NCBI GenBank assembly: GCA_018819405.1
Contig: JAHJQF010000001.1
Location: 290,097-354,096, forward strand
Length of the DNA: 64,000 nucleotides
Origin: Patescibacteria group bacterium
Lineage (GTDB): Bacteria > Patescibacteriota > Patescibacteriia > UBA1558 > GWA2-36-10
Direction of reading: 5' to 3'
The notes beneath the pieces are model-generated. The model saw only the letters and a program-made list of their open reading frames with translations, had not been told where the DNA came from and made no database searches. Position numbers and translations under genes: made by a program. Shown here one piece after another: positions 1-15,703 of this stretch (positions are counted from its first letter, which is position 1; the number at the start of each line of letters is the position of its first letter).

Positions 1-17
1 TTTGAAGGATTTTTAGA

Positions 18-46
18 TTGACAGGATAGAGTATTTATGCTATACT
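18..46 (+). promoter_or_regulatory. sigma70-like promoter (TTGACA-17nt-TATACT) for the high-GC membrane-protein gene
   Basis: TTGACA at 18-23, 17-nt spacer, TATACT at 41-46. RBS GGAAGGAG lies 8 nt before ATG 118. A near-identical copy sits at 15016-15044. Confidence 0.6.
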
Positions 47-117
47 ATATTATTCACCAAAAATAGGCCAATTTCAGGCTATTGGTTGTGTTCCTCAAAC
101 TTGGAAGGAGTAACTTT

Positions 118-531
118 ATGAGTACCGCCGTTGTTTCTCAGGCCAGATTGTTCTGGCGTAAGCTTGGTTGGTGGCAAGCGTTGACCATCGTCGTGGTGCT
201 GGCCGCCTTCTTCATCGCCTTGCACTTGACGGGTCAGAAGGAATTGGCCGGACTGATCGCCGCTCTTGTTGTGGCCTTCATCATGTTTGTCAGTGGAGCT
301 TATGCCGCCTTCACAAATTCTCCGGCTCCGCTCATTCCCACCGCTGTCCTCGCTATTGGTGTTTTTACTGTCATGATCACTCAAGTCGCCATCCTCTTAG
401 TTGGTGTTGTAGGATTAGTTTTTATCATGCTTAACCTTGAAGTGAGACAGTATGGTATCAAGAAGAGAGTTGTCTGGCTCTCATCTACAGTGGAGTTCGT
501 CGCCATTCTCCTTCCCATTTTACTGGCCTAG
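118..531 (+). CDS. small polytopic membrane protein, high-GC, paralog A
   Basis: ATG at 118 follows a strong RBS. Hydrophobic 137-aa product, GC much higher than surroundings. N- and C-termini are conserved with the 15114-15548 paralog. Intrinsic terminator downstream. Confidence 0.6.
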   Translation: MSTAVVSQARLFWRKLGWWQALTIVVVLAAFFIALHLTGQKELAGLIAALVVAFIMFVSGAYAAFTNSPAPLIPTAVLAIGVFTVMITQVAILLVGVVGLVFIMLNLEVRQYGIKKRVVWLSSTVEFVAILLPILLA

Positions 532-546
532 GCCAGCCCCTGCCAC

Positions 547-583
547 GAGACCCGGGTTAGAATAGGGTCTCTTCTTTTTTTCT
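547..583 (+). terminator. rho-independent terminator (GAGACCC-loop-GGGTCTC + T-run)
   Basis: Perfect 7-bp inverted repeat followed by T8. Duplicated at 15564-15597. Confidence 0.7.
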
Positions 584-650
584 CAAAAAATTCCCAAACA
601 AAAAACAATCTCTAAAAGATTGTTTTATAATATGAATAGAAAATTCGATT

Positions 651-746
651 TCATACAACAGACAAGCGTATGCGAAGTCGTGATTGAGCCTATGTGGTAA
701 AATTCGCGTAGCGACCACATAGGCGAAAGAACGATTTGGGTGAGCG
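651..746. repeat. Site-A copy 1 (~95 bp: 5' arm CAACAGACAAGCGTATGCGAAGTC, variable covarying stem-loop, 3' box GATTTGGGTGAGCGG)
   Basis: Stem 688-697 (CCTATGTGGT) pairs with 713-722 (ACCACATAGG). The 3' box abuts the stop of minus ORF 749-1102. Confidence 0.8.
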
Positions 747-748
747 GA

Positions 749-1102
749 CTAAATATCTTCCATAATCATTTCTTCTACCGCACGTTGTAATTTAAATAAA
801 TCTATATTGTTTGTTTTAAAAGCAGGTGCAGGTTGATATACGGGATTTTTGAAATTAATTTTTTCTATATTTCCTTGCTCATCAAATTTAATATACCCTT
901 CTGTTAATGTGCTATCGGGGTCAACTCCATAATTATCTGATAAACCTTTGTGAAACTTAGAGGTTATAAATATAGTAAAATTTTCAGTAACAGAAAATAC
1001 CCAAGTCCGCTGTTCTCTATCAATATCTACTTTACGTAATTTTAATAGAGCCTTATAGTCTATTTTTTCTGGTGATGATGGATTTTCAAAATGTTCATTC
1101 AT
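749..1102 (-). CDS. hypothetical protein (array cargo)
   Basis: 117-aa ORF flanked by Site-A (3') and Site-B (5'). Confidence 0.5.
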   Translation of the reverse strand: MNEHFENPSSPEKIDYKALLKLRKVDIDREQRTWVFSVTENFTIFITSKFHKGLSDNYGVDPDSTLTEGYIKFDEQGNIEKINFKNPVYQPAPAFKTNNIDLFKLQRAVEEMIMEDI

Positions 1103-1125
1103 AGTATTTTATTTAGTCCGCGAAC

Positions 1126-1154
1126 CGCATACGCGGTGTTGGGTGATGTACGAC
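1126..1154. repeat. Site-B copy 1 (CGCGAACCGCATACGCGGTGTTGGGTGATGT)
   Basis: Reverse-complement of the Site-A 5' arm. Internal CCGC-ATAC-GCGG hairpin. Confidence 0.8.
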
Positions 1155-1168
1155 GAATTCCCAGAATT

Positions 1169-1570
1169 TTATTTATTAAAAGTTTGTTTTATTCTTTTTG
1201 CTATTTCTTCAGGATATAATAGAATATTATCTAAATTATCTAATTTTATCCATTCCAAATTATATTGGTTATTTGGATTATTTCTTCCAGTTTCAGGCCA
1301 ACCTAATTTAATTTTTCCTTCAAATGTTTTAGCTAAGAAATAATATCCGTAATGGTGCTCATCTTTATATTCCCAAAGTAATTTATCCAAAACTATGTCT
1401 AAATTAGTTTCTTCTTTTATTTCTCTAATAGCGGTTTCTTCAGATTTTTCGTTTTTTTCTATTGTTCCTCCAGGAAATGCATAATACTCGTTATCATTTT
1501 TAATTCTATGTATTAAAAGAATTTTTTCATCTTTGATTATAATTACTGCTGATCTTTTATGATATTGCAT
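1169..1570 (-). CDS. Nudix hydrolase
   Basis: Nudix box GGTIEKNEKSEETAIREIKEETNL (GX5EX7REUXEEXGU). Confidence 0.75.
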   Translation of the reverse strand: MQYHKRSAVIIIKDEKILLIHRIKNDNEYYAFPGGTIEKNEKSEETAIREIKEETNLDIVLDKLLWEYKDEHHYGYYFLAKTFEGKIKLGWPETGRNNPNNQYNLEWIKLDNLDNILLYPEEIAKRIKQTFNK

Positions 1571-1602
1571 AGTTTTAAAAAATTCTGGGAATGAGGAGTA
1601 TT

Positions 1603-1700
1603 TCGCCTAACAGACAAGCGTATGAGAAGTCACGAGTGACTGGAGGTGATAGAATCGCACGGAGTGCTATCACCGAAAGGAACGAGTGATTTGCGCGAAG
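1603..1700. repeat. Site-A copy 2
   Basis: CCTAACAGACAAGCGTATGAGAAGTC arm. Stem GGTGATAG (1645-1652) pairs with CTATCACC (1667-1674), loop AATCGCACGGAGTG. Box GATTTGCGCGAAG. Confidence 0.8.
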
Positions 1701-1713
1701 AGAAATAAAGTTT

Positions 1714-1753
1714 TTGCTTAATTATTGACTAATTACTATATAAATGATAGGGT
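1714..1753 (+). promoter_or_regulatory. putative promoter for ORF 1820-2146, with CTGGCTAGGCCAG palindrome at 1767-1781
   Basis: TTGCTT/TTGACT -35 candidates and a TATATA -10. Palindrome lies between promoter and RBS AAAGGAGGTG. Confidence 0.4.
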
Positions 1754-1819
1754 ATTTTATTAGTTCTGGCTAGGCCAGAGTAGTTCATTACTCTAAACCT
1801 CTGAAAGGAGGTGAAAAAT

Positions 1820-2146
1820 ATGTCTTCCAATTTGGTTGGTTTGAAACTCGATGGCTACACTGTCCAGAAGGTGTTCGAAGTCTTCAGGGTCGACGAAGAC
1901 GGCATGAAGGTCAAGTCAGTCGACTTCTTCATGGACGGTGGTGTAGCCACAGCTTGGACTCAAGGTCTGGCTGACCGCCACTTCCACAAGACCGTCGAAG
2001 TGCTCGTCATCAGCAACGGTGAAAGCCATTTCCTTTTCGGAGGAGAGGAAGTCAACATCCACGATGACACGAGTGCCCTTCTTCAGGTTCGACAGAAGGC
2101 TCTGTCCAAGCTGACTTCGGAAGAACGGGCTGTACTCGGCCTGTGA
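1820..2146 (+). CDS. hypothetical protein, high-GC, opposite strand to array
   Basis: ATG 1820 is 8 nt after AAAGGAGG. ~58% GC in a ~30% GC context. Own terminator at 2153-2191. Confidence 0.55.
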   Translation: MSSNLVGLKLDGYTVQKVFEVFRVDEDGMKVKSVDFFMDGGVATAWTQGLADRHFHKTVEVLVISNGESHFLFGGEEVNIHDDTSALLQVRQKALSKLTSEERAVLGL

Positions 2147-2152
2147 TCATTT

Positions 2153-2191
2153 GCCGCCTGGCCTGAAAACTGGGCGGCTCTTTTATTTTTT
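2153..2191 (+). terminator. rho-independent terminator
   Basis: GCCGCC-TGGCCTGAAAACTG-GGCGGC followed by a T-run. Confidence 0.65.
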
Positions 2192-2207
2192 AAAAAACTT
2201 TATTTCT

Positions 2208-2239
2208 CTTCGCCTCATACGCGGTGATAGATGATGACC
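2208..2239. repeat. Site-B copy 2 (variant CTTCGCCTCATACGCGGTGATAGATGATGACC)
   Basis: Shares the CATACGCGGTG core and the GATGAT/GATGT tail. Confidence 0.65.
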
Positions 2240-2251
2240 AATTCCATGGCG

Positions 2252-3004
2252 TTATAAATTATTAATTTTTTTATAGGTAGCTATACCCGTACAATGAAGT
2301 TGTTGTCCATCTAAGACATGGTCATACTTTATATTATTATTAGATATATATTCTATTAGCCAATTTTTGATGTCAGTATTTATAAATTTTAATAAATATT
2401 TAGTTTGGTTGTTTATGAAATTTATTATCTGTAGTGTCTCAACTTTTTTGCGACCTCTTTCATCAATATATGTTTTTTCTGGTCCATTACTATTTATCAT
2501 AGCAAATGACAATGGTTTCGTTCCAAATATGACTATTTGAGATTTGTAATGAATTATTTTTTCTCTTTGTTCTTTTAATTTGAAAATCCATTTTTTATTT
2601 TTGTCTAATATTTTTTTTAATGCAATGTCTATAGTAGGTTTTTTTTCTAACGATTTATATAAATCATGTATACTCATTTCTTGGTCTTGCGGATGAGCAG
2701 GGCCTGTGGGGGTTTTTAGATTTCTGGTATTTTTTGGCAATGTCTGCCATATTATATAAGCTATATCGTTTAGTAATATTCTTTGTCTTATTATAAAACT
2801 TTCTAGATCAGCTGCTATATTATAGTGGTTTGGTTCGTTTTTGTTAGTTTCAGAAATTATTCGATCGTAGTATAAAAAAAGTCTAGATAGTGACCAAAAA
2901 ATAGCATTTGTATTGAAATAATAATGTTTTTTGAAGTGTTGAAAGCCAAAATTGGTAAGCACATCAAAAATTGGCAATTCTAAATATTCATTTTTTCTTA
3001 TCAT
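2252..3004 (-). CDS. hypothetical protein (array cargo)
   Basis: 250-aa ORF with no recognisable motif. Confidence 0.5.
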   Translation of the reverse strand: MIRKNEYLELPIFDVLTNFGFQHFKKHYYFNTNAIFWSLSRLFLYYDRIISETNKNEPNHYNIAADLESFIIRQRILLNDIAYIIWQTLPKNTRNLKTPTGPAHPQDQEMSIHDLYKSLEKKPTIDIALKKILDKNKKWIFKLKEQREKIIHYKSQIVIFGTKPLSFAMINSNGPEKTYIDERGRKKVETLQIINFINNQTKYLLKFINTDIKNWLIEYISNNNIKYDHVLDGQQLHCTGIATYKKINNL

Positions 3005-3024
3005 ATATAATGGAATTGGTTTTC

Positions 3025-3120
3025 ATCTATCAGGCTAGTGTATGCGAAGTTCTGCTTGAATTTTATGCTAAAATAGCACGGAGTGCAAGCATAAAATGAA
3101 AAGTAGAATTTGGGTGGAGC
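3025..3120. repeat. Site-A copy 3
   Basis: Stem ATTTTATGCT pairs with AGCATAAAAT, loop AAAATAGCACGGAGTGCA. Box GAATTTGGGTGGAGC. Forms a ~195-bp composite with Site-B copy 3 that is duplicated at 14767-14962. Confidence 0.8.
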
Positions 3121-3186
3121 AGTGTTAGTTTAGTTTAAACTATATAAAAACAGATAAATATTACTTTACCTGTTCTTTGATATTGC

Positions 3187-3220
3187 TTCGCGAAACCGCA
3201 TACGCGGTGTTGGCTGATGT
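3187..3220. repeat. Site-B copy 3
   Basis: CGCGAAACCGCATACGCGGTGTTGGCTGATGT. Ends 2 nt before the stop of ORF 3222-4025. Confidence 0.8.
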
Positions 3221-3221
3221 T

Positions 3222-4025
3222 TTAATTAAATTTTGTCTTTAATTCTTCCAAAGTTTTTCGCATTAATTCATCTGCTTTTTTGCTTTTTTCTTGTATTTCT
3301 TCAATGGAGTTTGTTTTGTATAAATCTTCGATTTCCTGAACAACTTCTGGTGGCAAATCAACTGACGCATGTTTAAGACCTATGTTTGGCCACTGCGGAG
3401 AATAAAGAAGCCTCAATGCTTCAATAAGTTTGTCTAAAATTAGATCGTGATATATTTTGAGCGCATCAAGATAGTTTTCTCGTTTTAATTCTCGTTCTAG
3501 ACACATGTTACGAAGAGAAACTCGGGCTTCAATATTTTCGATTTGAGCTATAATATTTTTGCGTTCATTTTCTTCGCTTCCTGATTCAGTTTCTAAAATA
3601 CCTTTTTTGTCGAACAATGTGGTTTTACCCTGTGCTTTTAATTTCGTAGAGTCAGAGTATGTTTGCAGAGTAATATCGATAATTAAAAATTTTGATGTGC
3701 CCTGCACATGATAAAGCATTTTGGGCCAATCATATCCAGGTCGTGTATGTTCAAGTTTAAAATCAATATTCGACAATGCGGCTTCTATCGTTTGAATAAC
3801 GCTTTCTATATTTTCGTCTTCTATGACAAGACGTACATCGATATCAGAATATTCGTCCACGGTACCATGTACATCTGCTCCTTCAAGAAAAAAAGCAAAA
3901 ACAGATGAATTGCCTTCAAGAGCGCTATGAAGCTGATCAATAATTTCTTTTCTCTTCTCTATTGTATTTTCTGGTTTTTGTTCGTTTTCTTGCCCTATGT
4001 TTATAGGTAACTCGTTCTTATTCAT
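3222..4025 (-). CDS. nucleotidyltransferase-domain protein
   Basis: G-x(n)-DID motif (LEGADVHGTVDEYSDIDVRLV) typical of the Pol-beta-like NTase fold. Substrate unknown. Confidence 0.5.
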   Translation of the reverse strand: MNKNELPINIGQENEQKPENTIEKRKEIIDQLHSALEGNSSVFAFFLEGADVHGTVDEYSDIDVRLVIEDENIESVIQTIEAALSNIDFKLEHTRPGYDWPKMLYHVQGTSKFLIIDITLQTYSDSTKLKAQGKTTLFDKKGILETESGSEENERKNIIAQIENIEARVSLRNMCLERELKRENYLDALKIYHDLILDKLIEALRLLYSPQWPNIGLKHASVDLPPEVVQEIEDLYKTNSIEEIQEKSKKADELMRKTLEELKTKFN

Positions 4026-4045
4026 ATTTAAAATTTAATTAATAT

Positions 4046-4142
4046 TTCAGCTAACAGACGTGCGTATGCGAAGTCGTGACTGAGCGAATATGATAAAATT
4101 ATTTGAAATCATATTTGCGAAAGAATGATTTGGGTGAGCGAG
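4046..4142. repeat. Site-A copy 4
   Basis: AGCTAACAGACGTGCGTATGCGAAGTC arm. Stem AATATGAT pairs with ATCATATT. Box GATTTGGGTGAGCGAGCCC. Confidence 0.8.
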
Positions 4143-4151
4143 CCCTTTTTA

Positions 4152-4334
4152 TTATTTGTCTTTTTCTTCAGTAGGTGGCACATAAATAACATCTTTTTTA
4201 TTATTAGGATTTATGCCTTCGCTAATTAGGTAATCCTCGTGCTCTTTGTTAAGTTCAGAAACCTCTCTTGTAAAAATACGAAATCCGATATATGCCAGAG
4301 CAGGTACTATAGGTATAAGTAATTTCCAATCCAT
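4152..4334 (-). CDS. small membrane protein (60 aa)
   Basis: N-terminal TM helix. Flanked by Site-A and Site-B. Confidence 0.4.
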   Translation of the reverse strand: MDWKLLIPIVPALAYIGFRIFTREVSELNKEHEDYLISEGINPNNKKDVIYVPPTEEKDK

Positions 4335-4354
4335 ATTTTTTTGTTAATTATTTA

Positions 4355-4391
4355 GCTCGCGAACCGCATACGCGGTGATAGGTGATGTGAT
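4355..4391. repeat. Site-B copy 4
   Basis: AGCTCGCGAACCGCATACGCGGTGATAGGTGATGTGAT. Confidence 0.8.
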
Positions 4392-4409
4392 AAAAATTTT
4401 AATATTTTA

Positions 4410-5219
4410 TTACCAATAACCGTTTTGATTATTTTGCCTAGCATTCCTTTTTTTGAATTCTCTTTCTTCAATAGAATTATACAGCGCAGTTTTTAGGATT
4501 TTAATATCATTATTGTCTAGATAATTTAGAAAATCATCAATGGTCTTTTTTGATACAACATCAATTAGAAAATATTCTGGCTTGTCTTTATATGTGTATT
4601 CAACTTCAATTTCAAAATTATTTTTAATATCTTCATATTTATTACCATCACTAGCCGCTCGTTTAAATTTAGTGAAGTCAGGGACTAATATTAGTGGATA
4701 ATTTACAGTGTTGTAGTTTCCACCTCTTTTATTGGAGTAAAAGAGACTTGCATGCATGACTTCGTTTTTTGCTTTATCCAAGATCTTGTTATCATTTTCT
4801 GTACTAAATTCCTTTACGGCTTCATTATCTTTTAAATAATGGTGCATCTTATTTTCGTAATTTAGGTAAAAATCTTCTTGATTTTGAAGGATGGGATTAT
4901 TTTTTGCTAATTGTTTAGACTTTATTGGATCTTTATCTAAAAACCAAAATACTATATGTGGTTTAATATACTTACACTCTATTATTAATCTTATCGTTAA
5001 TGTCTCTGTAGAATTACTGAACATACCACCGCCAACTTGAATATTTTTTTCAGCAATTATATCAATTTCTCTAGGTTTATTTTCAACAGGATCATTATAG
5101 TGTGGGCTATTTGTCACTGTCCATTCTTTTTCTTCTAATAATTTTGAAATTGTTAAGTGAAAGTCATGTCCACTGTCTCCCATTATTTTTTCTATGATTT
5201 TACCAGTATCTTTTTCCAT
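4410..5219 (-). CDS. hypothetical protein, possible PD-(D/E)xK nuclease fold
   Basis: REIDIIAEK ... IIECKY resembles a D...ExK nuclease motif. Weak. Confidence 0.4.
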   Translation of the reverse strand: MEKDTGKIIEKIMGDSGHDFHLTISKLLEEKEWTVTNSPHYNDPVENKPREIDIIAEKNIQVGGGMFSNSTETLTIRLIIECKYIKPHIVFWFLDKDPIKSKQLAKNNPILQNQEDFYLNYENKMHHYLKDNEAVKEFSTENDNKILDKAKNEVMHASLFYSNKRGGNYNTVNYPLILVPDFTKFKRAASDGNKYEDIKNNFEIEVEYTYKDKPEYFLIDVVSKKTIDDFLNYLDNNDIKILKTALYNSIEEREFKKRNARQNNQNGYW

Positions 5220-5234
5220 AAAATTTTTATTATT

Positions 5235-5333
5235 TCATCTATCAGGACAGGGTATCCGAAGTTCCGAAGCGAATAGCGTGCTAAACTTTCTGCGAAGCAG
5301 AGCACGCAAATGAGCGAGGAATTTGGATGAGCG
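5235..5333. repeat. Site-A copy 5
   Basis: CATCTATCAGGACAGGGTATCCGAAGTTCC arm. Stem GCGTGCT pairs with AGCACGC. Box GAATTTGGATGAGCGGG. Confidence 0.75.
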
Positions 5334-5353
5334 GGTAAGAAAAATTATCCTTA

Positions 5354-5641
5354 TTAATTCCTAACAAATGAGCCTATTAAAGTAAGGATAGCCGTTATTG
5401 CATATAGAATAGAAAAGATTGTTCCGTGGGCATTTTTGATTTTCTTTTTTAAAATCAAATAAGGTATTATTTCAAGTATGAGTGTCATAAAAAGTATGCC
5501 AATAATGCCACCAAGTAATTGGAAGATATCCGAACCATTTATTGCCAGCGAAGCAATAACGGATATAATTAAGCCACTATATGCAAGGATTTTTACATAC
5601 ATAGGTGACTCTTTGAGGTTTAAATTTAGTCCCACTTTCAT
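5354..5641 (-). CDS. small membrane protein (95 aa)
   Basis: Three predicted TM helices. Confidence 0.45.
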   Translation of the reverse strand: MKVGLNLNLKESPMYVKILAYSGLIISVIASLAINGSDIFQLLGGIIGILFMTLILEIIPYLILKKKIKNAHGTIFSILYAITAILTLIGSFVRN

Positions 5642-5680
5642 AATTTTATATTAATTATTTTATTTGTAAAATTTTTCTTA

Positions 5681-5716
5681 CCTGCGAATCGGATACCCGA
5701 TGTTGGGCGATGTACA
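5681..5716. repeat. Site-B copy 5 (covarying variant TCGG-ATAC-CCGA)
   Basis: CCTGCGAATCGGATACCCGATGTTGGGCGATGTACAG. The 4-bp hairpin stem has switched from CCGC/GCGG to TCGG/CCGA while staying complementary. Confidence 0.75.
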
Positions 5717-5725
5717 GATTTTCCT

Positions 5726-6076
5726 TTAAATACCCCATTCTGATATTAGTTTTAAAATGGATGGCCATTGAGAAGTGAAGACCATAGCAATGATCACAAT
5801 TATCACACCTATAATGATTAAGCCGACGGGTCGTTCAAACCACGTTTTCATAGCATTCAAGTCCGACATAACCTTAGATGTTTTTATGTAGAGCGCAGGA
5901 TTGCTTCCAGAATTATTGATATATCCATTTGCTTTTAGAAACTCGTAGTAGATTTTTTGCGCATCACTACTACTTACATTTAAGCCATTTTGAAGGTCTT
6001 GAAAATTAAATCCAGCATCAGGTGTTTTTGAAACCCATTTAAGAATCTTTTTTATTGGAATATTTGCTATTTTCAT
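5726..6076 (-). CDS. hypothetical protein with C-terminal TM helix
   Basis: 116-aa ORF. Confidence 0.45.
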   Translation of the reverse strand: MKIANIPIKKILKWVSKTPDAGFNFQDLQNGLNVSSSDAQKIYYEFLKANGYINNSGSNPALYIKTSKVMSDLNAMKTWFERPVGLIIIGVIIVIIAMVFTSQWPSILKLISEWGI

Positions 6077-6102
6077 AAATTACACAATAAGGAAAATCTG
6101 TA

Positions 6103-6203
6103 TTTCGCCTAACAGACGTGGATTGCCGAAGTTGTGAGAGAGTGAAGTGGCTAAACTTTCGGCGGAGCCGAGCCACGAAACGAACGAGCAATTTGGATGA
6201 GCA
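6103..6203. repeat. Site-A copy 6
   Basis: CGCCTAACAGACGTGGATTGCCGAAGTTG arm. Stem GTGGCT pairs with AGCCAC, loop AAACTTTCGGCGGAGCCG. Box CAATTTGGATGAGC. Confidence 0.75.
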
Positions 6204-6205
6204 AA

Positions 6206-6795: not shown

Positions 6796-6802
6796 TATTA
6801 AT

Positions 6803-9100: not shown

Positions 9101-9219
9101 CGTCTAACAGACAAGCGTATCTGAAGTTTTCTGCGAAACGAAGCTGTTATAATTATTGCGCGAAGTGGAGCGTAGCGCAAGAGCAGCGGAGTTGAGTAGA
9201 AAATTTGGGTGAAGTAGGA
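9101..9219. repeat. Site-A copy 8
   Basis: CGTCTAACAGACAAGCGTATCTGAAGTT arm. Stem TTGCGC pairs with GCGCAA. Box AAAATTTGGGTGAAGTAGG. Confidence 0.7.
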
Positions 9220-9243
9220 GAGAAAAAGCCTATTTTAAAGATA

Positions 9244-9272
9244 TTGACATATTATAGATATTCTGGTATTTT
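9244..9272 (+). promoter_or_regulatory. sigma70-like promoter (TTGACA-17-TATTTT) for ORF 9326-9517
   Basis: TTGACA at 9244-9249. RBS GAGGAGG lies before ATG 9326. Confidence 0.5.
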
Positions 9273-9325
9273 ATATTGTTCGTTCCCTGCATTATTCACC
9301 ACCAACCTAGTGAGGAGGACAGCTC

Positions 9326-9517
9326 ATGTCAGTATCAGAGGAGAGGAAATTGCTCGAGAAGATCATCCGAGCGAAGGTTCGCTTGGAAGACATGAAGGTC
9401 GAGCACAAGGAGGCTTGCCCTGCCGAAGATCCATTGATGGCAGGACAGTGCACCTGTGGTGCCGATACCCTGAACGGCCAGATCAACGCCGTTCTCCGCG
9501 AACTCTCTCTCGACTAG
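9326..9517 (+). CDS. small high-GC protein (63 aa), opposite strand
   Basis: Strong RBS, ~58% GC, CxC...C motif. Terminator at 9541-9571. Confidence 0.5.
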   Translation: MSVSEERKLLEKIIRAKVRLEDMKVEHKEACPAEDPLMAGQCTCGADTLNGQINAVLRELSLD

Positions 9518-9540
9518 TGGGACAGACTCAGTCCTGTCTC

Positions 9541-9571
9541 GGCGCTCTGCAACTGCGGGGCGCTTTTTTTT
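9541..9571 (+). terminator. rho-independent terminator
   Basis: GGCGCTCTGCAACTGCGGGGCGC followed by T9. Confidence 0.6.
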
Positions 9572-9585
9572 ATTTTTCTCTCCTA

Positions 9586-9616
9586 CTTCACCAGATACGC
9601 GGTGTTAGCTGATGTA
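9586..9616. repeat. Site-B copy 8
   Basis: CTTCACCAGATACGCGGTGTTAGCTGATGTA. Confidence 0.7.
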
Positions 9617-9663
9617 TTCCTTTTCTAGAATTTACTTTTTAAATATTTAAATTTCTTTTTTCA

Positions 9664-9710
9664 ATTTGGGCGAAGGGCAGAGGGGATTAAGGGGTGAATG
9701 CCCGAGCCCA
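9664..9710 (+). repeat. G-rich element copy 1 (GGGCGAAGGGCAGAGGGGATTAAGGGGTGAATGCCCGAGCCC)
   Basis: Four G-tracts with loops of 7 nt or fewer, a canonical G-quadruplex motif, on the plus strand. Starts with the AATTTGGGCGA box like the Site-A 3' end. Confidence 0.6.
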
Positions 9711-9716
9711 AAAAAG

Positions 9717-12290
9717 TTATCTATTTTCAGAAAAACGTATATCTCTTGCATGCAACATTGTTTTTAGGCTTTCAGTAAATTTTAAGGATTCTTTTAGTGC
9801 TTCCTTCTTTGTATCTCCTTTTGGAATTGGAATTAAGAAGTATTCATTCCAAGCGTCTGTTTTTAATTCAGGTTGACTGGCTGTCTGAGCTAAATAATAT
9901 CCTTGTTTTTTGCATAAATCGCTTCTTAACGAATACCATAACAGCATACTTTCTTCTAAATTTTTTGTTTTAAATACCCAAAAGCCAGATGTACAAATAA
10001 AATTTTCCATTTCTTTTGGTACCAGCATAACAGTTCCTCGTGAACTAATGTTTATCGCCATTAGAACATCATTTTCTTGAATTTTGTATTGTCCACGCGA
10101 TGGTAGGTTTTCAAAATTGTCAGTTAAGTAGTTTATTGGCAAGCCATAGTCAGTTACGTCACTAATTTCAATATAATGAAATTGTTTGTTTTTAAATTCA
10201 TTTTTTTGCAGGCCATTAATTTTAGCTCTTTTTTTTACGTCTATACCTTTTTTAATTTCAATTTTATCTTTGTCGGCGAGCTCTAAAATTTTATTCCAGG
10301 TATTTTTTAACTCAGGCGCATAGAAAAAAGCATCTAATCTATCAATTATTAATTCTTCTGGTGGAGTAATCCAAATTTGTTCCGGACATTCTAAGTTTTC
10401 ATTTTTGTTTTGATTTTCTTTAATTGTTGGTTTCAGTATCCCTGTTCGTTTCCATTCTAAATAAGATACTAAAATATCAGTTAAATTATTACGCTCTAAG
10501 GTGTCTCTGAGGGAGTTGTCGTGTCCAATATTATTACTTATAGACATAAAAATGTGACTTTGTCGTTCATCATCATTTTGTTTTTTCCGTAGATGTAAAA
10601 TTGACGTTTTTATATTTGCCTTTGCCTTGAAGAATGCGTTAAATGGTAAAGAATGAACTCCTAAAATTATAAATTTATCTACTATCCAGTTTCGAACATT
10701 TTGTTGATTTTTCCCGTTTAATACTGTGTCGTCAAGAACCAGTAATATTTCGCCACCTGATTTCAGTAATTTCCAATATCGATCCAAAAATAAAATATTT
10801 GATTTTGCACTTTTCATCCCGTCTGCAATATGGCGCTGGTCTAATATATCTGTTTCATCTTCATTATTTCTGTCATACACCATGCTAAACGGAGGGTTTG
10901 TTAGTACCAAGTCAAAGCTATTTTCCATGATTTTTGTTTGCATTGCTTCAATTTCAGATTTTCTTTCATCTTTCATGTCTTCTGCAATTTTTGGAAAATC
11001 GTCCAATCCATCGCCGTGAAATATGTGACTACCACCATCGCCGTGTAAATACATATTAATTCTAGCAATTCTTGCAACACGTTCATTTGCTTCAATGCCA
11101 AATAATTGTTCATTACAGATCTTGTTTTTAATTATTTCTTTTTCTGTATTACTAAAGCGTGTATCATCTCTCAATCCAGATAATAAATAAGCCATAACTT
11201 CAATGAGAAAACCAGCTGTTCCTGCACATGCATCCATAACTTTTGGCGGATTTTTAATATCCACATTACATAAGGCAATTCGGGTCATAAAGTCAACAAC
11301 TGGTCGGGGTGTAAAATATTGCCCCAATGCTCGTCCTCTTACGGCAGCGTTTAAGAACACTTCAAACATTCGTCCGTTAAGGTCTTCATCAATTGAGCTA
11401 AGATTAATTTTTTCAAATATTTTTATTAGATCTTGGCAGGTGGAGGCACTCAATTTAAAAGTTTCATTTTCTTCAAAAATTCTACGTTTTTTGTCTCTAT
11501 GTATTGCAGCTTCTAAATCGTCTCGTAATTTATTAAAAAGAATGTCTCGCACAGGATGTTTTGATGTTGATTTTTGAGCATCTAACCACTCGCTGGTAAG
11601 TGGAATTTTATATGTTGGGATGTCTTCATTATTTTGTCCTCTTTTTTTATCCTCATTAATCTTAATGAATATAAATTTACAAAATTCAAAAAAAGCATCA
11701 GTAGGGCTAAGTTTTTCCCTCTTCCAAATTAAATCATGCGTTTGCTGAAAGATTTTATTCAATTCGTCAGGCGAAACGATTTCAAATTTTAATCCATCAC
11801 CGTGCACTACTTCATCAGCAGTTTTATACTTGATATAACTTCTTAGATTGGTATAGGCTGGTGAACCACTGGCAAAATCTGATAACTGTAATGTTACGAT
11901 TGGTGTACTGCTGTCCCATTTGAATAACGAAGTTATAAAACCATTACTGATTAATAACCACTTGACCTTTTCTTTGTCTAATTTATCTCGGTTATAACTA
12001 AGAGCATAGCTTGCAGCTTGTCCCCATGCTTCGTTTATGGATTTATTTGGATCCTTAGCCTCTACTACTACTTTTGCATTTCCATTGCTACCAAGTAATA
12101 AAAAATCTATTTCAATTTTTATTTTTTTGGATCCATCATTAGCCATCAAATTAAGGAGTCTTTTTTTGGGGATAACAGATTGATCTGTATAGCCGAGATC
12201 ATTAAATAATTTTGCCAAGAGCCTAGTTTCTACCTCGGCTTCGGTTTTTAAGTCTTTTAAATTAAGTTGAAATAGAGTACTTTGGCTCAT
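9717..12290 (-). CDS. Type IIG-like restriction-modification enzyme / N6-adenine DNA methyltransferase with HsdR-N-type N-terminal domain
   Basis: Motif I DACAGTAGFL, motif IV LTNPPF, an HsdM-like helical domain, an N-terminal Type-I-R N-terminal-like domain and a long C-terminal extension. 857 aa. Confidence 0.7.
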   Translation of the reverse strand: MSQSTLFQLNLKDLKTEAEVETRLLAKLFNDLGYTDQSVIPKKRLLNLMANDGSKKIKIEIDFLLLGSNGNAKVVVEAKDPNKSINEAWGQAASYALSYNRDKLDKEKVKWLLISNGFITSLFKWDSSTPIVTLQLSDFASGSPAYTNLRSYIKYKTADEVVHGDGLKFEIVSPDELNKIFQQTHDLIWKREKLSPTDAFFEFCKFIFIKINEDKKRGQNNEDIPTYKIPLTSEWLDAQKSTSKHPVRDILFNKLRDDLEAAIHRDKKRRIFEENETFKLSASTCQDLIKIFEKINLSSIDEDLNGRMFEVFLNAAVRGRALGQYFTPRPVVDFMTRIALCNVDIKNPPKVMDACAGTAGFLIEVMAYLLSGLRDDTRFSNTEKEIIKNKICNEQLFGIEANERVARIARINMYLHGDGGSHIFHGDGLDDFPKIAEDMKDERKSEIEAMQTKIMENSFDLVLTNPPFSMVYDRNNEDETDILDQRHIADGMKSAKSNILFLDRYWKLLKSGGEILLVLDDTVLNGKNQQNVRNWIVDKFIILGVHSLPFNAFFKAKANIKTSILHLRKKQNDDERQSHIFMSISNNIGHDNSLRDTLERNNLTDILVSYLEWKRTGILKPTIKENQNKNENLECPEQIWITPPEELIIDRLDAFFYAPELKNTWNKILELADKDKIEIKKGIDVKKRAKINGLQKNEFKNKQFHYIEISDVTDYGLPINYLTDNFENLPSRGQYKIQENDVLMAINISSRGTVMLVPKEMENFICTSGFWVFKTKNLEESMLLWYSLRSDLCKKQGYYLAQTASQPELKTDAWNEYFLIPIPKGDTKKEALKESLKFTESLKTMLHARDIRFSENR

Positions 12291-12379
12291 ATTGGTTTAA
12301 TTTAGTTTTTATACTATTTATAATACAAGTATAATTCATTTAAAATAAAAACACAATTCTGAGATATAAATAAATCGTT

Positions 12380-12435
12380 TCCGAAGCGTAGCGGAGGAAA
12401 CATCTGCTCCTGCCGACAGGCAGGTTCCCCTCCTA
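12380..12435. repeat. GC-rich nested hairpin (GGAGG...CCTGCCGACAGGCAGG...CCTCC)
   Basis: Perfect inner hairpin CCTGCC-GACA-GGCAGG nested in a GGAGG/CCTCC outer stem. Begins with the CGAAGCGTAGCGG segment shared with 8367-8386. Confidence 0.5.
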
Positions 12436-12514
12436 AAAAAAGAAAAAGAAATTTGTAATTTTTAAAAATAATTGTTTGTTAAATGCCGAAAAAGAAAAGG
12501 AATATTTCAGCTAA

Positions 12515-12603
12515 CAGACGTGCGTATCTGAAGTTCCGAAGCGAGTGGCGTGGTAAAATTGCGCGGAGCGCACCACGCAAACGAGCGAGGAATTTGGGTG
12601 AGT
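12515..12603. repeat. Site-A copy 9
   Basis: AGCTAACAGACGTGCGTATCTGAAGTTCC arm. Stem GCGTGGT pairs with ACCACGC, loop AAAATTGCGCGGAGCGC. Box GAATTTGGGTGAGTAAG. Confidence 0.8.
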
Positions 12604-12606
12604 AAG

Positions 12607-13065
12607 TTAAATAAAATCTTTATACTGCTCTTCAATAGGAGGATTGGAAAAATAAGCCAATACACTATTACCAGATTCCATTAATTCTATCATTTCAAAA
12701 CCGTCTCTAGGTATTAATTTAAAATTATTTTTGCCCAAATTTTCTTTTTTAAAATTTTCGTAATTTTTCACTGTAAAATCTGCATCGCCCCTTTCTTTTT
12801 TATTAGGATCAAATTCTCTAATTTTTAATACTCTAATAGTTCTTCCTATAGGCTCATTTAATATGAATATAGGGCCACTGTATGTGTCTTTCAATTTTTC
12901 ACCAAATTTTTTTACTTCTTCAATCAATTCCTTATATTCTTCTTCAGTTTGGGCAAAAATACAAGCCCAAGTCGCTATAGCACCATGTTCTTTGGTATAT
13001 TTATCTTTAAGAGCAATAGCTCTCATTAGTATTTCTTGAACGATAATTTTTTTTAAATCTACCAT
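12607..13065 (-). CDS. hypothetical protein
   Basis: 152-aa ORF. Confidence 0.45.
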   Translation of the reverse strand: MVDLKKIIVQEILMRAIALKDKYTKEHGAIATWACIFAQTEEEYKELIEEVKKFGEKLKDTYSGPIFILNEPIGRTIRVLKIREFDPNKKERGDADFTVKNYENFKKENLGKNNFKLIPRDGFEMIELMESGNSVLAYFSNPPIEEQYKDFI

Positions 13066-13087
13066 AGTTTTATAAAGATTTTATTTA

Positions 13088-13124
13088 ACTTACGAACCAG
13101 ATACGCGGTGATAGGTGATGTACA
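13088..13124. repeat. Site-B copy 9
   Basis: ACTTACGAACCAGATACGCGGTGATAGGTGATGTAC. Confidence 0.75.
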
Positions 13125-13182
13125 TTTTTTCTTAAACTTTAAAGAGTTTTATTTCTTAAAAGTAGAATTTGATTTTTATCAA

Positions 13183-13240
13183 TTTTGGCGAGGGCGCAGA
13201 GGGGGTTAGGGGGTGAATGCGCCCGAGCCAAAGGCGCTTT
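13183..13240 (+). repeat. G-rich element copy 2 (GGCGAGGGCGCAGAGGGGGTTAGGGGGTGAATGCGCCCGAGCC)
   Basis: Homologous to 9664-9710. Preceded by an AAGTAGAATTTGA box remnant. Confidence 0.6.
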
Positions 13241-13255
13241 GTCTAATTTATAATT

Positions 13256-14077
13256 TTATTTTGCTTCTACACTTTTTATTATTTGTTTAGTTAACTCATT
13301 AAAGATTACAAAAAACATTTGAGAGTCCTGTGGTTCTAAAAAGATTTTTAATCTTAATTGTTTTTCGGGGTGTATTAGATTTCTATATTCCATTATAGTA
13401 GTGCCTATGTCTTTTGCTGGTTTTCTCACCCAGCCCATAGAGAATGATACATCAATAAAATTACTTAGTGTCCACTCCGATAAATTACGAGGTTTTTTAG
13501 TTTTTGGGTCTATTGGGGTTGTTTTTTGTTTAAAAATAGTACTTTTATCTGTTAATTTATTTATGCGCGCAAGAAAAAATGCTTCCAGTAATCCACCCAT
13601 CATTACTGTGGCAGCAAGAGGTGCTACATTGATGCAGTTTTGGATTTCATCGAAACGACTATATATGATTTGTTGCATGTAGTCATCTTGTACAAGATTT
13701 TCTAATGAAGTAATATTTTTATTTTCTACTTTTGGTTTTTGGTTTGTTATTGTTTCGGATTGCAATTTTATTAGTTTACCTCTTAATCCCTTAATAAGGG
13801 ATAGGTATTTATTTTTACTAGTAGCTGAATGCGACCATTCATTTATTAGTAGATAGTCATCATTAATTTTAGTATATAGTTCAGAATCTACGCATAAAGG
13901 AGAAAAAATATTTTTATATTTTTCGAACCACGCTAAAGAAATTGTTCTTATAAACTCACGTGTAGATTTTGAACGTATTTGATCTCCGCTTTCTTTTCGC
14001 AATATTTTTTTAAGACGTTCAGCTTCATCTAGTAAGGTAATTAAAATATTTGAAATATTGCTGTCGTTAATTGCCAT
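13256..14077 (-). CDS. hypothetical protein
   Basis: 273-aa ORF. Confidence 0.45.
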   Translation of the reverse strand: MAINDSNISNILITLLDEAERLKKILRKESGDQIRSKSTREFIRTISLAWFEKYKNIFSPLCVDSELYTKINDDYLLINEWSHSATSKNKYLSLIKGLRGKLIKLQSETITNQKPKVENKNITSLENLVQDDYMQQIIYSRFDEIQNCINVAPLAATVMMGGLLEAFFLARINKLTDKSTIFKQKTTPIDPKTKKPRNLSEWTLSNFIDVSFSMGWVRKPAKDIGTTIMEYRNLIHPEKQLRLKIFLEPQDSQMFFVIFNELTKQIIKSVEAK

Positions 14078-14088
14078 AGCTAGAGTGA

Positions 14089-14643
14089 TTATTTTTTCTT
14101 TTTAGTATTTCTTACAATTTTTTTTCTTTTCTTTGATGTAGTTGCAGTACTTTCTGTATTTGGAAGAACCATTGCAACAAGATTTTCTCCAACACTGTTT
14201 AATCTGTATGCACCTCTTGAAATATTGTCTAAATACCCAGCTTTAGTTGCATTTACTAAAGTTTGATCTGGACGTTTTATCCTAGTTCTCCCCACAAGTC
14301 TTGTGGCCTCTATTAAATCATTCATTGATATGGTGTCCTTTTTTTCACTTGCTTCAAATTGATAATAGTAGGCAACAGCGGCAGCAAAATGATTATCGGA
14401 AGATGGTTTTTTTCCATCAATAAAAGTTTTTATATCTCTAGATGTTGTATGTTGAGTCGATGCATTTTGAGTTATGTTATTAAGGATATCAGGCTTTATC
14501 TCTTGTGTAATTCCGGGTATATTAATATTTAATTTTTCGCATGCCCATCGCATGGTTTGTAGTTGTTCGTCTTCTGGAAGTGTTTGTATTAAGTTGACGA
14601 TTTCACGCAATACGTCATAGGAATCTTTTTTTTGATCACTCAT
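14089..14643 (-). CDS. hypothetical protein with lysine-rich C-terminal tail
   Basis: 184 aa ending KKRKKIVRNTKKKK. Co-modular with 13256-14077 (11-nt gap). Confidence 0.45.
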   Translation of the reverse strand: MSDQKKDSYDVLREIVNLIQTLPEDEQLQTMRWACEKLNINIPGITQEIKPDILNNITQNASTQHTTSRDIKTFIDGKKPSSDNHFAAAVAYYYQFEASEKKDTISMNDLIEATRLVGRTRIKRPDQTLVNATKAGYLDNISRGAYRLNSVGENLVAMVLPNTESTATTSKKRKKIVRNTKKKK

Positions 14644-14766
14644 ATTGTTTAGTTGTTAGTTAATATTATATTTATTTATTTCAACCCCCTAACTAAAATA
14701 GATAAAAATCAAATTTGTATAATTTAAATTTTAGCTTATCTTAGCCAAAAAGGAAAAATGTATGTC

Positions 14767-14868
14767 ATCTATCAGACGTGCGTATGCGAAGTTCTACTTG
14801 AATTTTATGCTAAAATAGCACGGAGTGCAAGCATAAAATGAAAAGTAGAATTTGGGTGGAGCTGTTTT
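14767..14868. repeat. Site-A copy 10 (duplicate of copy 3)
   Basis: Identical stem-loop ATTTTATGCT-AAAATAGCACGGAGTGCA-AGCATAAAAT. Confidence 0.8.
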
Positions 14869-14929
14869 AGTTTAGTCTAAACTATATAAAAACAGATAAA
14901 TTTTACTTTACCTGTTCTTAAATAATGCT

Positions 14930-14962
14930 TCGCGAAACCGTATACGTAGTGTTGTCTGATGT
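14930..14962. repeat. Site-B copy 10 (degenerate: CGCGAAACCGTATACGTAGTGTTGTCTGATGTCG)
   Basis: Position-equivalent to Site-B copy 3 inside the duplicated composite. Confidence 0.65.
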
Positions 14963-15015
14963 CGAATTTTCTTAGACATTTACTATTATTTAGGGGAATT
15001 TTTGGGTTTTTAAGG

Positions 15016-15044
15016 TTGACAAGATATAGTGTTTATGATATATT
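15016..15044 (+). promoter_or_regulatory. sigma70-like promoter (TTGACA-17-TATATT)
   Basis: Paralogous copy of the promoter at 18-46. Confidence 0.6.
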
Positions 15045-15113
15045 ATTTTGTTAACTAAAATCGGTCAATTCAGGCCATTGGTTGTGTTCCTCAAACTTGG
15101 AAGGAGTAATTTC

Positions 15114-15548
15114 ATGACTACCACCGTTGTTTCCCAGGGTAGCTTGTTCTGGAACAAGCTCGGCAAGTGGCAGATGCTGGCAGTTCTGTTAACTTTGGTG
15201 GTTTTCTTCGTTGCCCTAGGAATGGGTAATAAGGAGACTGCCGGCACCATCTCTGCTCTCACGCTTGCTGCCGTCACTCTGACTGTTCTCACTGTCGCCG
15301 CCCTCGTTCTCGCTGTCCCTTCCGCCGTTCCCTTCGTATTCCTTTTCGCTGCTGCTACTGCCAGCATCGCCTTCGCTTTCGTTAAAGGTGTTGCCATTAT
15401 TCCCGGCATCGCCTTCGCCGTCGCTGAAGGAATTGCTGTCACCCTTGCCGTCGCTGAGGTGAAGAAGTACGGCATCAGGAAGAGGATTGTTTGGTTTTCC
15501 TTCGCGGCGGAGTTTGCGTGTATCGTCCTTCCCATGTCACTGGCTTAG
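15114..15548 (+). CDS. small polytopic membrane protein, high-GC, paralog B
   Basis: N-terminus MTTTVVSQGSLFWNKLGKWQ matches paralog A's MSTAVVSQARLFWRKLGWWQ. C-terminus KKYGIRKRIVWFSFAAEF matches RQYGIKKRVVWLSSTVEF. Alanine- and valine-rich core. Confidence 0.6.
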   Translation: MTTTVVSQGSLFWNKLGKWQMLAVLLTLVVFFVALGMGNKETAGTISALTLAAVTLTVLTVAALVLAVPSAVPFVFLFAAATASIAFAFVKGVAIIPGIAFAVAEGIAVTLAVAEVKKYGIRKRIVWFSFAAEFACIVLPMSLA

Positions 15549-15563
15549 GCCAGCACCCTCCAC

Positions 15564-15597
15564 GAGACCCGGGTTAGAATAGGGTCTCTTTTTTTCC
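15564..15597 (+). terminator. rho-independent terminator
   Basis: GAGACCC-GGGTTAGAATAG-GGTCTC followed by T9. Confidence 0.7.
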
Positions 15598-15664
15598 AAA
15601 AAATTCCCAAACAAAAAACAATCTCTAAAAGATTGTTTTATTATATGAATAGAAAATTCGATTT

Positions 15665-15703
15665 CATACAACAGACCGCCATATGCGAAGTTGCGCAGGC
15701 CGC
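15665..15703. repeat. Site-A copy 11 (truncated variant CATACAACAGACCGCCATATGCGAAGTTGCGCAGGCCGCC)
   Basis: Arm present, no 3' box. Confidence 0.55.

Follow-up and report, generated by a model that had tools for sequence, protein, structure and literature searches.

The array and its sites

The stretch of DNA analysed here, a window of 64,000 nucleotides (nt) from the genome of a Patescibacteria group bacterium (contig JAHJQF010000001.1, ~1.03 Mb), opens with an array of two kinds of short sites, Site A and Site B, which adjoins a gene for a tyrosine recombinase. Bases 1-16800 hold 11 copies of Site A and 11 of Site B, strictly alternating and all on the + strand; no copy of either was found in 17-64 kb of the window. 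The intervals from a Site B to the next Site A contain cargo, mostly AT-rich genes on the - strand, and those from a Site A to the next Site B are site units, which either have no open reading frame (ORF) or carry one in a loop. Two blocks are repeated within the array: block (i), a cargo module with a gene for a membrane protein, and block (ii), an ORF-less site unit. We argue below that these repeats are probably modules of an integron-like cassette array. The features on which the argument draws are the following (CDS, coding sequence; SD, Shine-Dalgarno sequence; GC, guanine plus cytosine).

648, 1600, 3020, 4044, 5232, 6102, 7367, 9097, 12504, 14762, 15661 (+): starts of Site A
1139, 2227, 3210, 4378, 5703, 6757, 8399, 9605, 13111, 14952, 16048 (+): G|TT junctions of Site B
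1..658 (+): cargo module, copy 1 of block (i), its left end cut by the window edge
18-46 (+): sigma-70-like promoter of copy 1, 11/12 match
103-120 (+): SD and ATG of copy 1
118-531 (+): membrane-protein CDS of copy 1, 137 amino acids, four transmembrane segments, GC 50%
547-571 (+): intrinsic terminator of copy 1 with T-run
604-624: second hairpin of copy 1, a terminator for the - strand
638-647 and 648-658: flank stem and R arm of copy 1
3020..3220 (+): '192-type' ORF-less Site A-linker-Site B unit, copy 1 of block (ii)
14762..14962 (+): '192-type' unit, copy 2 of block (ii), adjoining cargo copy 2 on its left
14952..15671 (+): cargo module, copy 2 of block (i), complete
14952-14962, 14963-14972 and 15016-15044: R arm of Site B, flank stem and promoter of copy 2
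15114-15548 (+): CDS of copy 2, 144 amino acids, 54% GC
15564-15588, 15617-15637, 15651-15660 and 15661-15671: terminator, hairpin, flank stem and R arm of Site A in copy 2
16773..16809 (+): attI-like terminal half-site, A-type, TATTTCAGCTAA|CAGTGTGTTTGTGCACCTATTGACA
16863..17729 (+): tyrosine recombinase, 288 amino acids, transcribed away from the array

The majority of the array genes are - strand genes with a high AT content (24-34% GC). A further four, on the + strand, are GC-rich (50-55%), and each of them is equipped with a near-consensus promoter, a GGAGG Shine-Dalgarno sequence and an intrinsic terminator of its own. A promoter scan of the whole was not enriched (87 found versus 73 ± 6.5 expected), and we credit only the 11/12 (18-46, 15016-15044) and 10/12 (9244-9272) matches upstream of GC-rich genes.

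Read from the left, Site A consists of an R arm (ATTTCnnnTAA) | CAGACnn | L box (e.g. GCGTATGCG), followed by AAGT, a hairpin (H) and ATTTGGGTGAGC, and Site B of ...CGAACC, the complement of the L box and GGTG | R arm (TTnnnnGATGT). The consensus is nnnTAAC...GTTnnnn, i.e. the R''/R' ends and the paired L''/L' boxes of an attC-type site are present. In A, 7 nt separate R from L, and in B 4 nt, a difference of 3 nt that holds in 11/11 pairs; the R arm reads AA at positions 9-10 in A (65 sites) and TG in B (60 sites), over more than 15 contigs. The two halves are therefore not interchangeable. Cargo modules are flanked by inverted R arms and a module-specific flank stem, and site units by the paired L boxes and a stem. 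An empty site unit is a Y-shaped element of 130-220 nt, and the others are the same element with an ORF, of up to 305 amino acids, in a loop (units measure 132-135, 192 or 208-221 nt, and from 336 nt to over 1 kb when they carry an ORF). Hairpin H has a conserved 6-nt TAAAAT bulge and C(GNA)G triloops, the latter a feature of DNA hairpins. In the 192-type unit the order is R arm, CAGGCTA core, L box, hairpin H with the TAAAAT bulge and a C(GGA)G triloop, branched linker, L box, GGTG and R arm.

The unit that follows cargo copy 2 on the right (15672-16048) has an 81-amino-acid ORF (15723-15968) in the apex of hairpin H, with the lower stem GAAGTTGC / GCAATTTT retained; elsewhere the ORF occupies the second hairpin instead. 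Mini-hairpin motifs of the d(GCGNAGC) type (GCGAAGC, GCGTAGC, GCGGAGC) also cluster outside the canonical H, at 6770-6795, 8365-8385, 9150-9175 and 12380-12405; in the array as a whole GCGNAGC motifs number 12 on the + strand versus 3 on the - strand. Three candidate identities for the repeated sites were rejected: a shufflon or other invertible system, as arm swaps and gene fusions are absent; a dispersed family of miniature inverted-repeat transposable elements (MITE) or repetitive extragenic palindromes (REP), as the copies are restricted to the array; and A and B as self-contained dif-like duplex sites, as their spacing is unequal and there is no consistent internal dyad.

The two repeats

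A preliminary description of this sequence had noted two duplicated blocks about 15 kb apart, and self-BLASTN of the window, repeat finding and MAFFT alignments concur in recovering both. Block (ii) (3023-3220 versus 14765-14962) is 91.9% identical over 198 nt (E 3e-77), close to the roughly 90% first given. Block (i) as a whole extends over 1-663 versus 14999-15676 and is found by self-BLASTN as a 5' part (7-176 versus 15005-15172, 81%, E 3e-38) and a 3' part (438-678 versus 15455-15691, 83%, E 9e-65). Its identity is 79% in the 5' flank (1-117 versus 14999-15113), 53% over the CDS (118-531 versus 15114-15548; 44% in the core, with 27 gap columns and a 24-nt indel) and 92% in the 3' flank (532-658 versus 15549-15671), which bears out the initial impression of near-identical flanks around a diverged ORF core. 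The limits first assigned to this block need adjustment: copy 1 starts at or before base 1 of the window, the left edge of copy 2 is the Site-B core at 14952-14962 and not 15016, and the likeness ends after the conserved CAGAC of Site A, at 663/15676; the block thus ends at 15676-15691, and not at 15703. Likewise, the offset of 15.0 kb holds for block (i), and that of block (ii) is 11.74 kb.

At the right-hand locus the two blocks abut (14762-14962 | 14963-15671), whereas 2.3 kb separates them at the left-hand locus, where their order is reversed. There was therefore no single colinear duplication, and (i) and (ii) are modules of different kinds, namely cargo and site unit. Each repeat is exactly one module, with all its edges on Site-A or Site-B cores; the blocks are, as first supposed, real modules of the array. 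Both pairs are in direct orientation, with longest identical runs of 66 nt in (ii) and 45 nt in (i).

Could the repeats be misjoined or collapsed sequence, the circumstance that the preliminary description had named as fatal to its claim? Such repeats do break short-read assemblies, and no direct support for an artefact was found beyond this general property. It is very unlikely, to the point that we give it almost no weight, because the copies differ from each other at 8-47% of positions and three independent short-read Logan contigs (SRR6514730) reproduce window positions 1112-3084, 3091-4116 and 13200-14826 at 100%. These contigs hold copy-specific variants and their breaks fall inside repeat (ii); moreover, the same architecture recurs in unrelated samples.

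A different account would have one block, with both the composite site and the membrane-protein gene in it, copied 12-15 kb away by a recent homologous or illegitimate recombination event, with the pair now serving as a substrate for RecA-dependent deletion. The direct repeats of 200-690 nt, with their identical runs of 45-66 nt, and the adjacency of the two blocks on the right are as such an event would leave them. The pattern departs from a plain segmental duplication in that the order and spacing of the blocks differ between the loci (they are not colinear on the left), identity ranges from 44% to 92% by segment and each edge lies on a site core. Further, the two membrane proteins, both with four transmembrane segments, are only 44% identical in amino-acid sequence, and their genes have a nonsynonymous divergence (dN) of 0.56 and a synonymous divergence (dS) of 1.84 (dN/dS about 0.3); they are old paralogues under purifying selection. 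As will be seen, the modules also recur in other metagenomes with other partners. Taken together, this leaves a recent segmental duplication with little chance of being correct. The alternative suggestion of a recent site-specific duplication of modules was nearer the truth, since the edges lie on site cores; it is its recency that fails.

The consequences drawn earlier for genome rearrangement are affected as well. As the repeats are direct, recombination between copies can only delete or duplicate, and the inversion envisaged earlier falls away. Rare RecA-mediated deletion of the 11.7 or 15 kb between these 80-92% identical direct repeats could occur, though identical runs this short favour it only weakly; site-specific recombination at the 22 A/B cores is the better-supported source of rearrangement.

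A conserved chassis around differing genes

Block (i) consists of a conserved AT-rich frame (promoter, 5' untranslated region, two convergent terminators and R arms), which we term the chassis, and a GC-rich ORF within it. It spans from TGATGT|CGAATTTTCT... to ...AGAAAATTCG-ATTTCATACAA|CAG, and its 3' flank of ~125 nt comprises the terminator, a second hairpin that terminates - strand transcription, TATAAT, the flank stem and the R arm. Loci on other contigs, designated here by L numbers, show how unequally the parts are conserved: in L021, L022, L023 and L025 the 3' flank is about 97-100% identical, whereas the proteins encoded there are 39-76% identical, and in L009 and L011 both the 5' and the 3' flanks of the chassis enclose unrelated GC-rich ORFs (a 99-amino-acid Cys-rich protein and a protein of ~100 amino acids). 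The near-identical flanks are thus better explained by constraint on an expression and recombination chassis; the contrast of identical flanks and diverged core would arise because a conserved chassis hosts ORFs that differ or have been replaced. Six chassis cargo copies have a Site B to their left, and the orientation of the cargo relative to that site is the same in each (copy 1 of the window is cut at its left).

The protein of copy 1 is KKH39_01505, annotated as 'hypothetical' in a Patescibacteria genome. The membrane protein has no match in Pfam, NCBIfam or PADLOC, and its family comprises 62 representative clusters among 1.84 billion proteins, none of them named. The chassis terminator motif has only three metagenome matches and was not found in viral contigs.

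Two occurrences of chassis elements elsewhere deserve mention. At L022 (783-830) a chassis cargo ends in ATTTCATACAA|CAAATAGTACG and is joined to non-array DNA with a - strand gene of at least 216 amino acids, with no Site A L box; this junction may be a secondary-site insertion or the end of an array. In L024, a 405-kb metagenome contig, the chassis terminator CCTCCACGAGACCCGGGTTAGAATAGGGTCTC follows an unrelated small ORF (~7680-8010 of the reverse-complemented locus), which encodes ~52 amino acids, is GC-rich and hydrophobic, has a TTGACA promoter and lies far from any A/B site.

The recombinase and its half-site

The attI-like half-site lies 54 nt upstream of the recombinase gene. Its left-hand R arm differs according to the first cassette, and what follows AA|CAG on the right is conserved from one genome to another. 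The recombinase passes the NCBIfam model NF040815 for XerA/integron integrases (228.6, cut-off 220) and falls below the cut-off of the integron-integrase model TIGR02249 (203.8 versus 265, with the match split in two). It is about equally like Pyrococcus abyssi XerA (E 2e-41) and Vibrio cholerae IntI4 (E 6e-40). The IntI-specific insert is lacking: residues 170-238 of VchIntIA (2a3v) stand opposite only 28 residues, with ~41 amino acids missing. It retains an IntI-like GxxSPLD C-terminus (GIKSPLD). Its relatives form a large Patescibacteria clade, which probably corresponds to the 'Cand' subgroup of Xer proteins, treated as housekeeping in earlier work (PMC8138268).

The platform recurs in other genomes. 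The exact Site-A pattern is present in many contigs of Patescibacteria metagenome-assembled genomes (MAGs), with alternating A/B sites, and also in some bins labelled Gammaproteobacteria of similarly low GC (33-38%). The recombinase, at 56-83% identity, is found with its upstream DNA at five further loci (L009, L018, L020, L026 and L028), which represent five other Patescibacteria lineages; L027 and L029 are additional contigs with the same recombinases as L026 and L028. Each of these loci has the same layout: an A/B array, then an attI-like half-site and, to the right of both, the recombinase gene in unchanged orientation. When the window is compared with L009, L018 and L020, DNA conservation starts exactly at 16773 and stops at the stop codon of the recombinase; on the left side of AA|CAG, arm and cassette vary from genome to genome. 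The same holds for the closest relative, L030, in which the recombinase is 91% identical and the downstream RNR and beta-CASP genes are syntenic: the right part of its attI is identical to that of the window, and its R arm and the sequence left of it are different. This pattern is what would be expected as the footprint of cassette turnover at a fixed crossover.

One of these loci has an occupant of a different kind. In L026 (7346-9839; a Nomurabacteria MAG with a recombinase 65% identical) a diversity-generating retroelement, made up of a reverse transcriptase, bAvd and a 195-amino-acid gene, stands between the attI-like site and the first A/B pair, placed as if it were the first cassette.

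Covariation and strand of folding

The sites of the array covary in two distinct registers. The variable part of the R arm of a given Site B (B_k) is reverse-complementary to that of the Site A which follows across the cargo (A_k+1), with a score of 7.3/9 (permutation p about 1e-5), as against 5.4/9 for the Site A of its own unit (A_k; p 0.85); all three GAT-type arms are paired as B_k with A_k+1. In integrons, arm covariation across the cassette was the argument that first located the crossover at G|TT, and the pattern here is the same. The L boxes, conversely, match within units: those of A_k and B_k agree at 96/99 positions, which 0/200,000 permutations reached, and the L-box variants GGATTGCCG, GGGTATCCG and CCATATGCG are exactly matched in the partner site. 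These pairings are extended by cognate-specific inverted repeats, i.e. flank repeats of 6-14 nt around each cargo and inner stems of 7-22 nt within the units; most are far above the non-partner background (mean about 6-7 nt, maximum 10), and the shortest are indistinguishable from it.

Across 93 site pairs from the window and 20 other contigs, the 794 paired cells comprise 733 Watson-Crick pairs, 45 G·T and 2 A·C as read on the + strand. Because the mismatches are G·T rather than A·C, this indicates that selection acts on folding of the + strand, which lies opposite most of the cargo genes and is the counterpart of the 'bottom strand' of integrons. The three L-box differences between the two 192-type copies accord with this, as all keep their pairing as G·T on that strand, and in hairpin H there are compensatory changes at 13/18 pairs and one invariant G·T. 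As single-stranded DNA (ssDNA), a compact unit folds into a Y of a closing R+L stem, H and a terminator-like hairpin (-37.1 kcal/mol, z -9.8). The 192-type unit of block (ii) closes its R and L boxes as + strand ssDNA (-29.9 kcal/mol, z -4.4), and its - strand fold leaves them unclosed.

One could instead see the A-H-B units as elements of RNA or transcription without mobility, i.e. small-RNA genes, terminators, insulators or processing stems, with their likeness due to regulatory conservation. The covariation of hairpin H is RNA-like, with an invariant wobble of the G·U type, TAAAAT is a conserved -10-like motif, the hairpins of the compact units resemble bidirectional terminators and this genome reuses terminator-promoter units elsewhere. 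Against this, there is no Rfam family match: a search with Rfam 15 gave only two tRNAs at gathering score in the window, and no relevant match at E <= 1 in 1-17000. Further, the elements are restricted to the block beside the recombinase, conservation between genomes starts exactly at the half-site junction, with a different first cassette, R-arm covariation across the cargo is the classic signature of a crossover point, and the C(GNA)G triloops point to a DNA hairpin. We accordingly regard a purely RNA-level role as quite improbable. RNA function and recombination are not mutually exclusive.

Assortment of cargo and site units

The copies in other contigs show that the neighbours of a module change. 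The unit to the left of the membrane-protein cargo is of the 192-type in copy 2 of the window, of a 210-type in L021, L025 and L023 and of a 133-type in L022, and the units to its right vary as well. Copy 1 and L023 share the type of their right-hand unit though their proteins are only 44% identical; the protein of L021 is 76% identical to that of copy 1, yet its right-hand unit is of another type. Thus, the combinations do not follow the phylogeny of the cargo. The units, for their part, turn up in various settings: the 133-type is found beside different arms in six contigs, the unit at 648-1150, with a 117-amino-acid ORF, has an 83% homologue in L019 amid unrelated neighbours and a diverged 192-type unit is present in L006. 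On this comparative evidence cargo and site units appear to assort independently. The same cargo with different units on both sides would therefore imply that junctions form at B and not at A alone, or else that conserved units are exchanged by homologous recombination.

Independent assortment on both sides is also what the model of dif modules predicts (PMC13141974), which brings up an explanation on duplex DNA. In this, A and B would each be a complete Xer site, in alternating inverted orientation, exchange would be A x A and B x B, and modules with R arms inside or L boxes inside would be shuffled in the manner of the C and D dif modules of Acinetobacter plasmids; the repeats would be modules shuffled in this way. 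The strict alternation of two kinds of module with like arms inside, the independent assortment of cargo and units on both sides and a recombinase that is Xer-like and without the IntI insert all agree with it. Nevertheless, the 3-nt difference in R-to-L spacing in every pair makes A and B non-equivalent as duplexes, and the arms do not form dif-like sites of the 11-6-11 kind. Inversion would swap the R arms, yet positions 9-10 stay AA versus TG (65 and 60 sites), and neither the bias of G·T over A·C (45:2) nor the module-specific flank stems would have a role in a duplex reaction. We consider this explanation unlikely, albeit with a real minority chance of being right.

Proposed mechanism and its significance

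The combined evidence suggests, in our view with reasonable though not high confidence, that the repeats are paralogous modules shuffled site-specifically in a chromosomal integron-like cassette array, whose cargo and units assort independently. In such an array, the neighbouring recombinase would pair a folded + strand A:B hairpin, the counterpart of attC, with the half-site, the counterpart of attI, or with another hairpin. Strand exchange would take place at AA|C (...AA|CAG), with the geometry of the integron bottom strand 5'-RYYYAA|C. Cassettes could thus be inserted, excised and re-sorted, which would bring related modules to several positions. The independent assortment might come about if both strands react, if duplex B sites recombine with each other (B x B) or if conserved units are exchanged by homologous recombination. 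The chassis flanks would stay near-identical since they are functional, providing expression signals, transcriptional insulation and recombination arms, and the ORF within would diverge or be replaced.

Several points weigh against this proposal. No recombination product, circle or alternative junction was seen, and activity is deduced from comparative structure. Integron integrases have been reported to need an extra domain for the single-strand pathway (PMC4792948), which the present recombinase lacks, and the enzyme may simply be the housekeeping Xer of its lineage, following the treatment of the 'Cand' subgroup (PMC8138268). Cargo and site units are unlinked here, whereas a canonical integron keeps the cargo and its attC linked, and ORFs of up to 305 amino acids within site units are awkward for a hairpin substrate. 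The + strand features, namely the G·T bias, the -10-like TAAAAT bulge, the terminator-like hairpins and the TATAAT before Site A in the chassis, could equally be explained by RNA. Finally, the left end of copy 1 lies beyond the window, and its partner unit is not visible.

A more specific proposal can be made only tentatively: the locus may represent a Patescibacteria analogue of the integron, run by a 'Cand'-type Xer that had been assumed to be housekeeping, with branched sites that fold on the + strand and whose two halves flank the modules, cargo and site modules that re-assort independently and a reusable chassis for different GC-rich ORFs. If the array works in the way set out above, cassette capture would extend to the candidate phyla radiation (CPR), whose tiny genomes acquire accessory and defence genes in poorly understood ways. 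The array would also offer a natural test of what an Xer-type enzyme minimally needs to recombine folded single-stranded sites, a matter of debate in the integron field. An integron analogue of the more specific kind would show how cassette capture at hairpin sites can proceed without the IntI-specific domain, and might reflect a stage near the transition from Xer to integron or an independent invention. The duplications themselves are ordinary for such arrays, yet they are informative on how modules are built: they mark module limits exactly and show cargo and site units travelling separately. Moreover, one conserved expression chassis that hosts different ORFs bears on the unsolved problem of cassette genesis.

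Cargo genes and other features of the window

The cargo of the array is typical of accessory genes and includes a candidate defence gene, a methylase of the restriction-modification (R-M) type and two NUDIX genes. The first is a 305-amino-acid ORF inside a site unit (7414-8331, -) with a full-length match to the PADLOC candidate defence protein PDC-S18 (E 8e-131), which also carries DUF5655; the second, of 857 amino acids (9717-12290, -), is an N6-adenine methylase of the type I/IIG R-M kind; and the NUDIX genes (1169-1570 and 6206-6694) are cassettes. Two small GC-rich ORFs (53-55%) of 108 and 63 amino acids, at 1820-2146 and 9326-9517 on the + strand, lie within A-to-B site units and not in cargo positions; each has its own TTGACA-type promoter, GGAGG Shine-Dalgarno sequence and intrinsic terminator, and the 63-amino-acid protein (9326-9517) has an 81% homologue in L014. 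The self-expressed, reversed genes in this AT-rich array are each about 20 points higher in GC. A G-rich repeat of ~48 nt (GGCGARGG..AGAGGGGRTTARGGGGTGAATGC..CCGAGCC) occurs at 9668-9716 and 13187-13235, i.e. 55-65 nt to the right of two Site B copies and just beyond the stop codons of - strand cargo genes, and is also present in L004 and L017 (about 92% identical) and in L012 (about 83%).

Outside the array, a unit of terminator hairpin, extended -10 promoter and leader (..AATCGCTCTAAAAGCGGTTTTTTGATATAATGA..GTTATTAAAATAAAAATATG) is reused before several genes:

44531-44600: reused terminator-promoter unit
51723-51772: reused terminator-promoter unit
54048-54117: reused terminator-promoter unit
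57001-57059: reused terminator-promoter unit
59033-59088: reused terminator-promoter unit

Its hairpin, with a TCTAAAA loop, resembles the second hairpin of the chassis. The genes at 51755-52813 and 59072-59989 are paralogues with a common N-terminal transmembrane segment. Lastly, a GC-rich block at 45000-50300 (48-54% versus about 35% around it), with five co-oriented - strand ORFs, is possibly a horizontally acquired operon.

Comparison with known systems

Our literature searches, which did not cover subscription journals, turned up no description of integron-like or Xer-linked cassette arrays in Patescibacteria/CPR, and only resistome surveys; integrases and cassettes also go unmentioned in a study on horizontal gene transfer that covered 125 Patescibacteria genomes. 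Among known systems, several can be set beside the array.

The sedentary chromosomal integrons share its general layout, in that the recombinase gene is transcribed away from the adjoining array with a half-site beside it and most cassette genes are co-oriented. The sites are likewise imperfect palindromes whose ends are of the RYYYAAC and GTTRRRY types and whose inner boxes pair. In both, the first arm of a cassette is complementary to the distal arm of its site, which is the mark of a crossover at G|TT, and in the array, as in integrons, selection for folding appears to act on the strand opposite the genes. Both carry accessory or defence-type cargo, and paralogous cassettes are common in integrons. 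The differences begin with the recombinase, which here lacks the IntI-specific insert and scores as XerA. An attC is a simple hairpin of about 57-141 nt, whereas the sites here measure 132-221 nt, are Y-shaped with an extra hairpin (with its TAAAAT bulge and invariant G·T) and can enclose ORFs of up to 305 amino acids. Also unlike integrons, the array has module-specific stems that extend past the R box, no permanent bond between cargo and site unit, and several self-contained cargo genes, GC-rich and reversed, that bring their own promoter and terminators.

The dif modules of Acinetobacter plasmids (pdif, XerC/XerD; PMC13141974, PMC7399989) resemble the array in other respects: two kinds alternate, with inversely oriented sites and like arms inside, the modules occur in many combinations and an Xer-type recombinase is implicated. 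However, the array has no 28-bp XerC-6-XerD sites (an 11-bp arm, a 6-bp spacer and an 11-bp arm) and no dif-like dyad, the spacing and the conserved arm positions set its A and B halves apart, and there is no sign of inversion. In contrast to these plasmid modules it is chromosomal, belongs to Patescibacteria, has a single recombinase gene beside it with a dedicated terminal half-site and bears a strong signature of single-strand folding.

For an Xer enzyme acting on folded DNA, CTX-type phages offer a precedent: there, Xer without the IntI domain exchanges one pair of strands between a folded ssDNA hairpin and a duplex site, and replication completes the reaction (PMC3442271). These are phages that integrate at chromosomal dif, unlike the multi-cassette array described here. 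Should the reading as an integron analogue prove true, the array would combine the logic of the integron with that of the dif modules.

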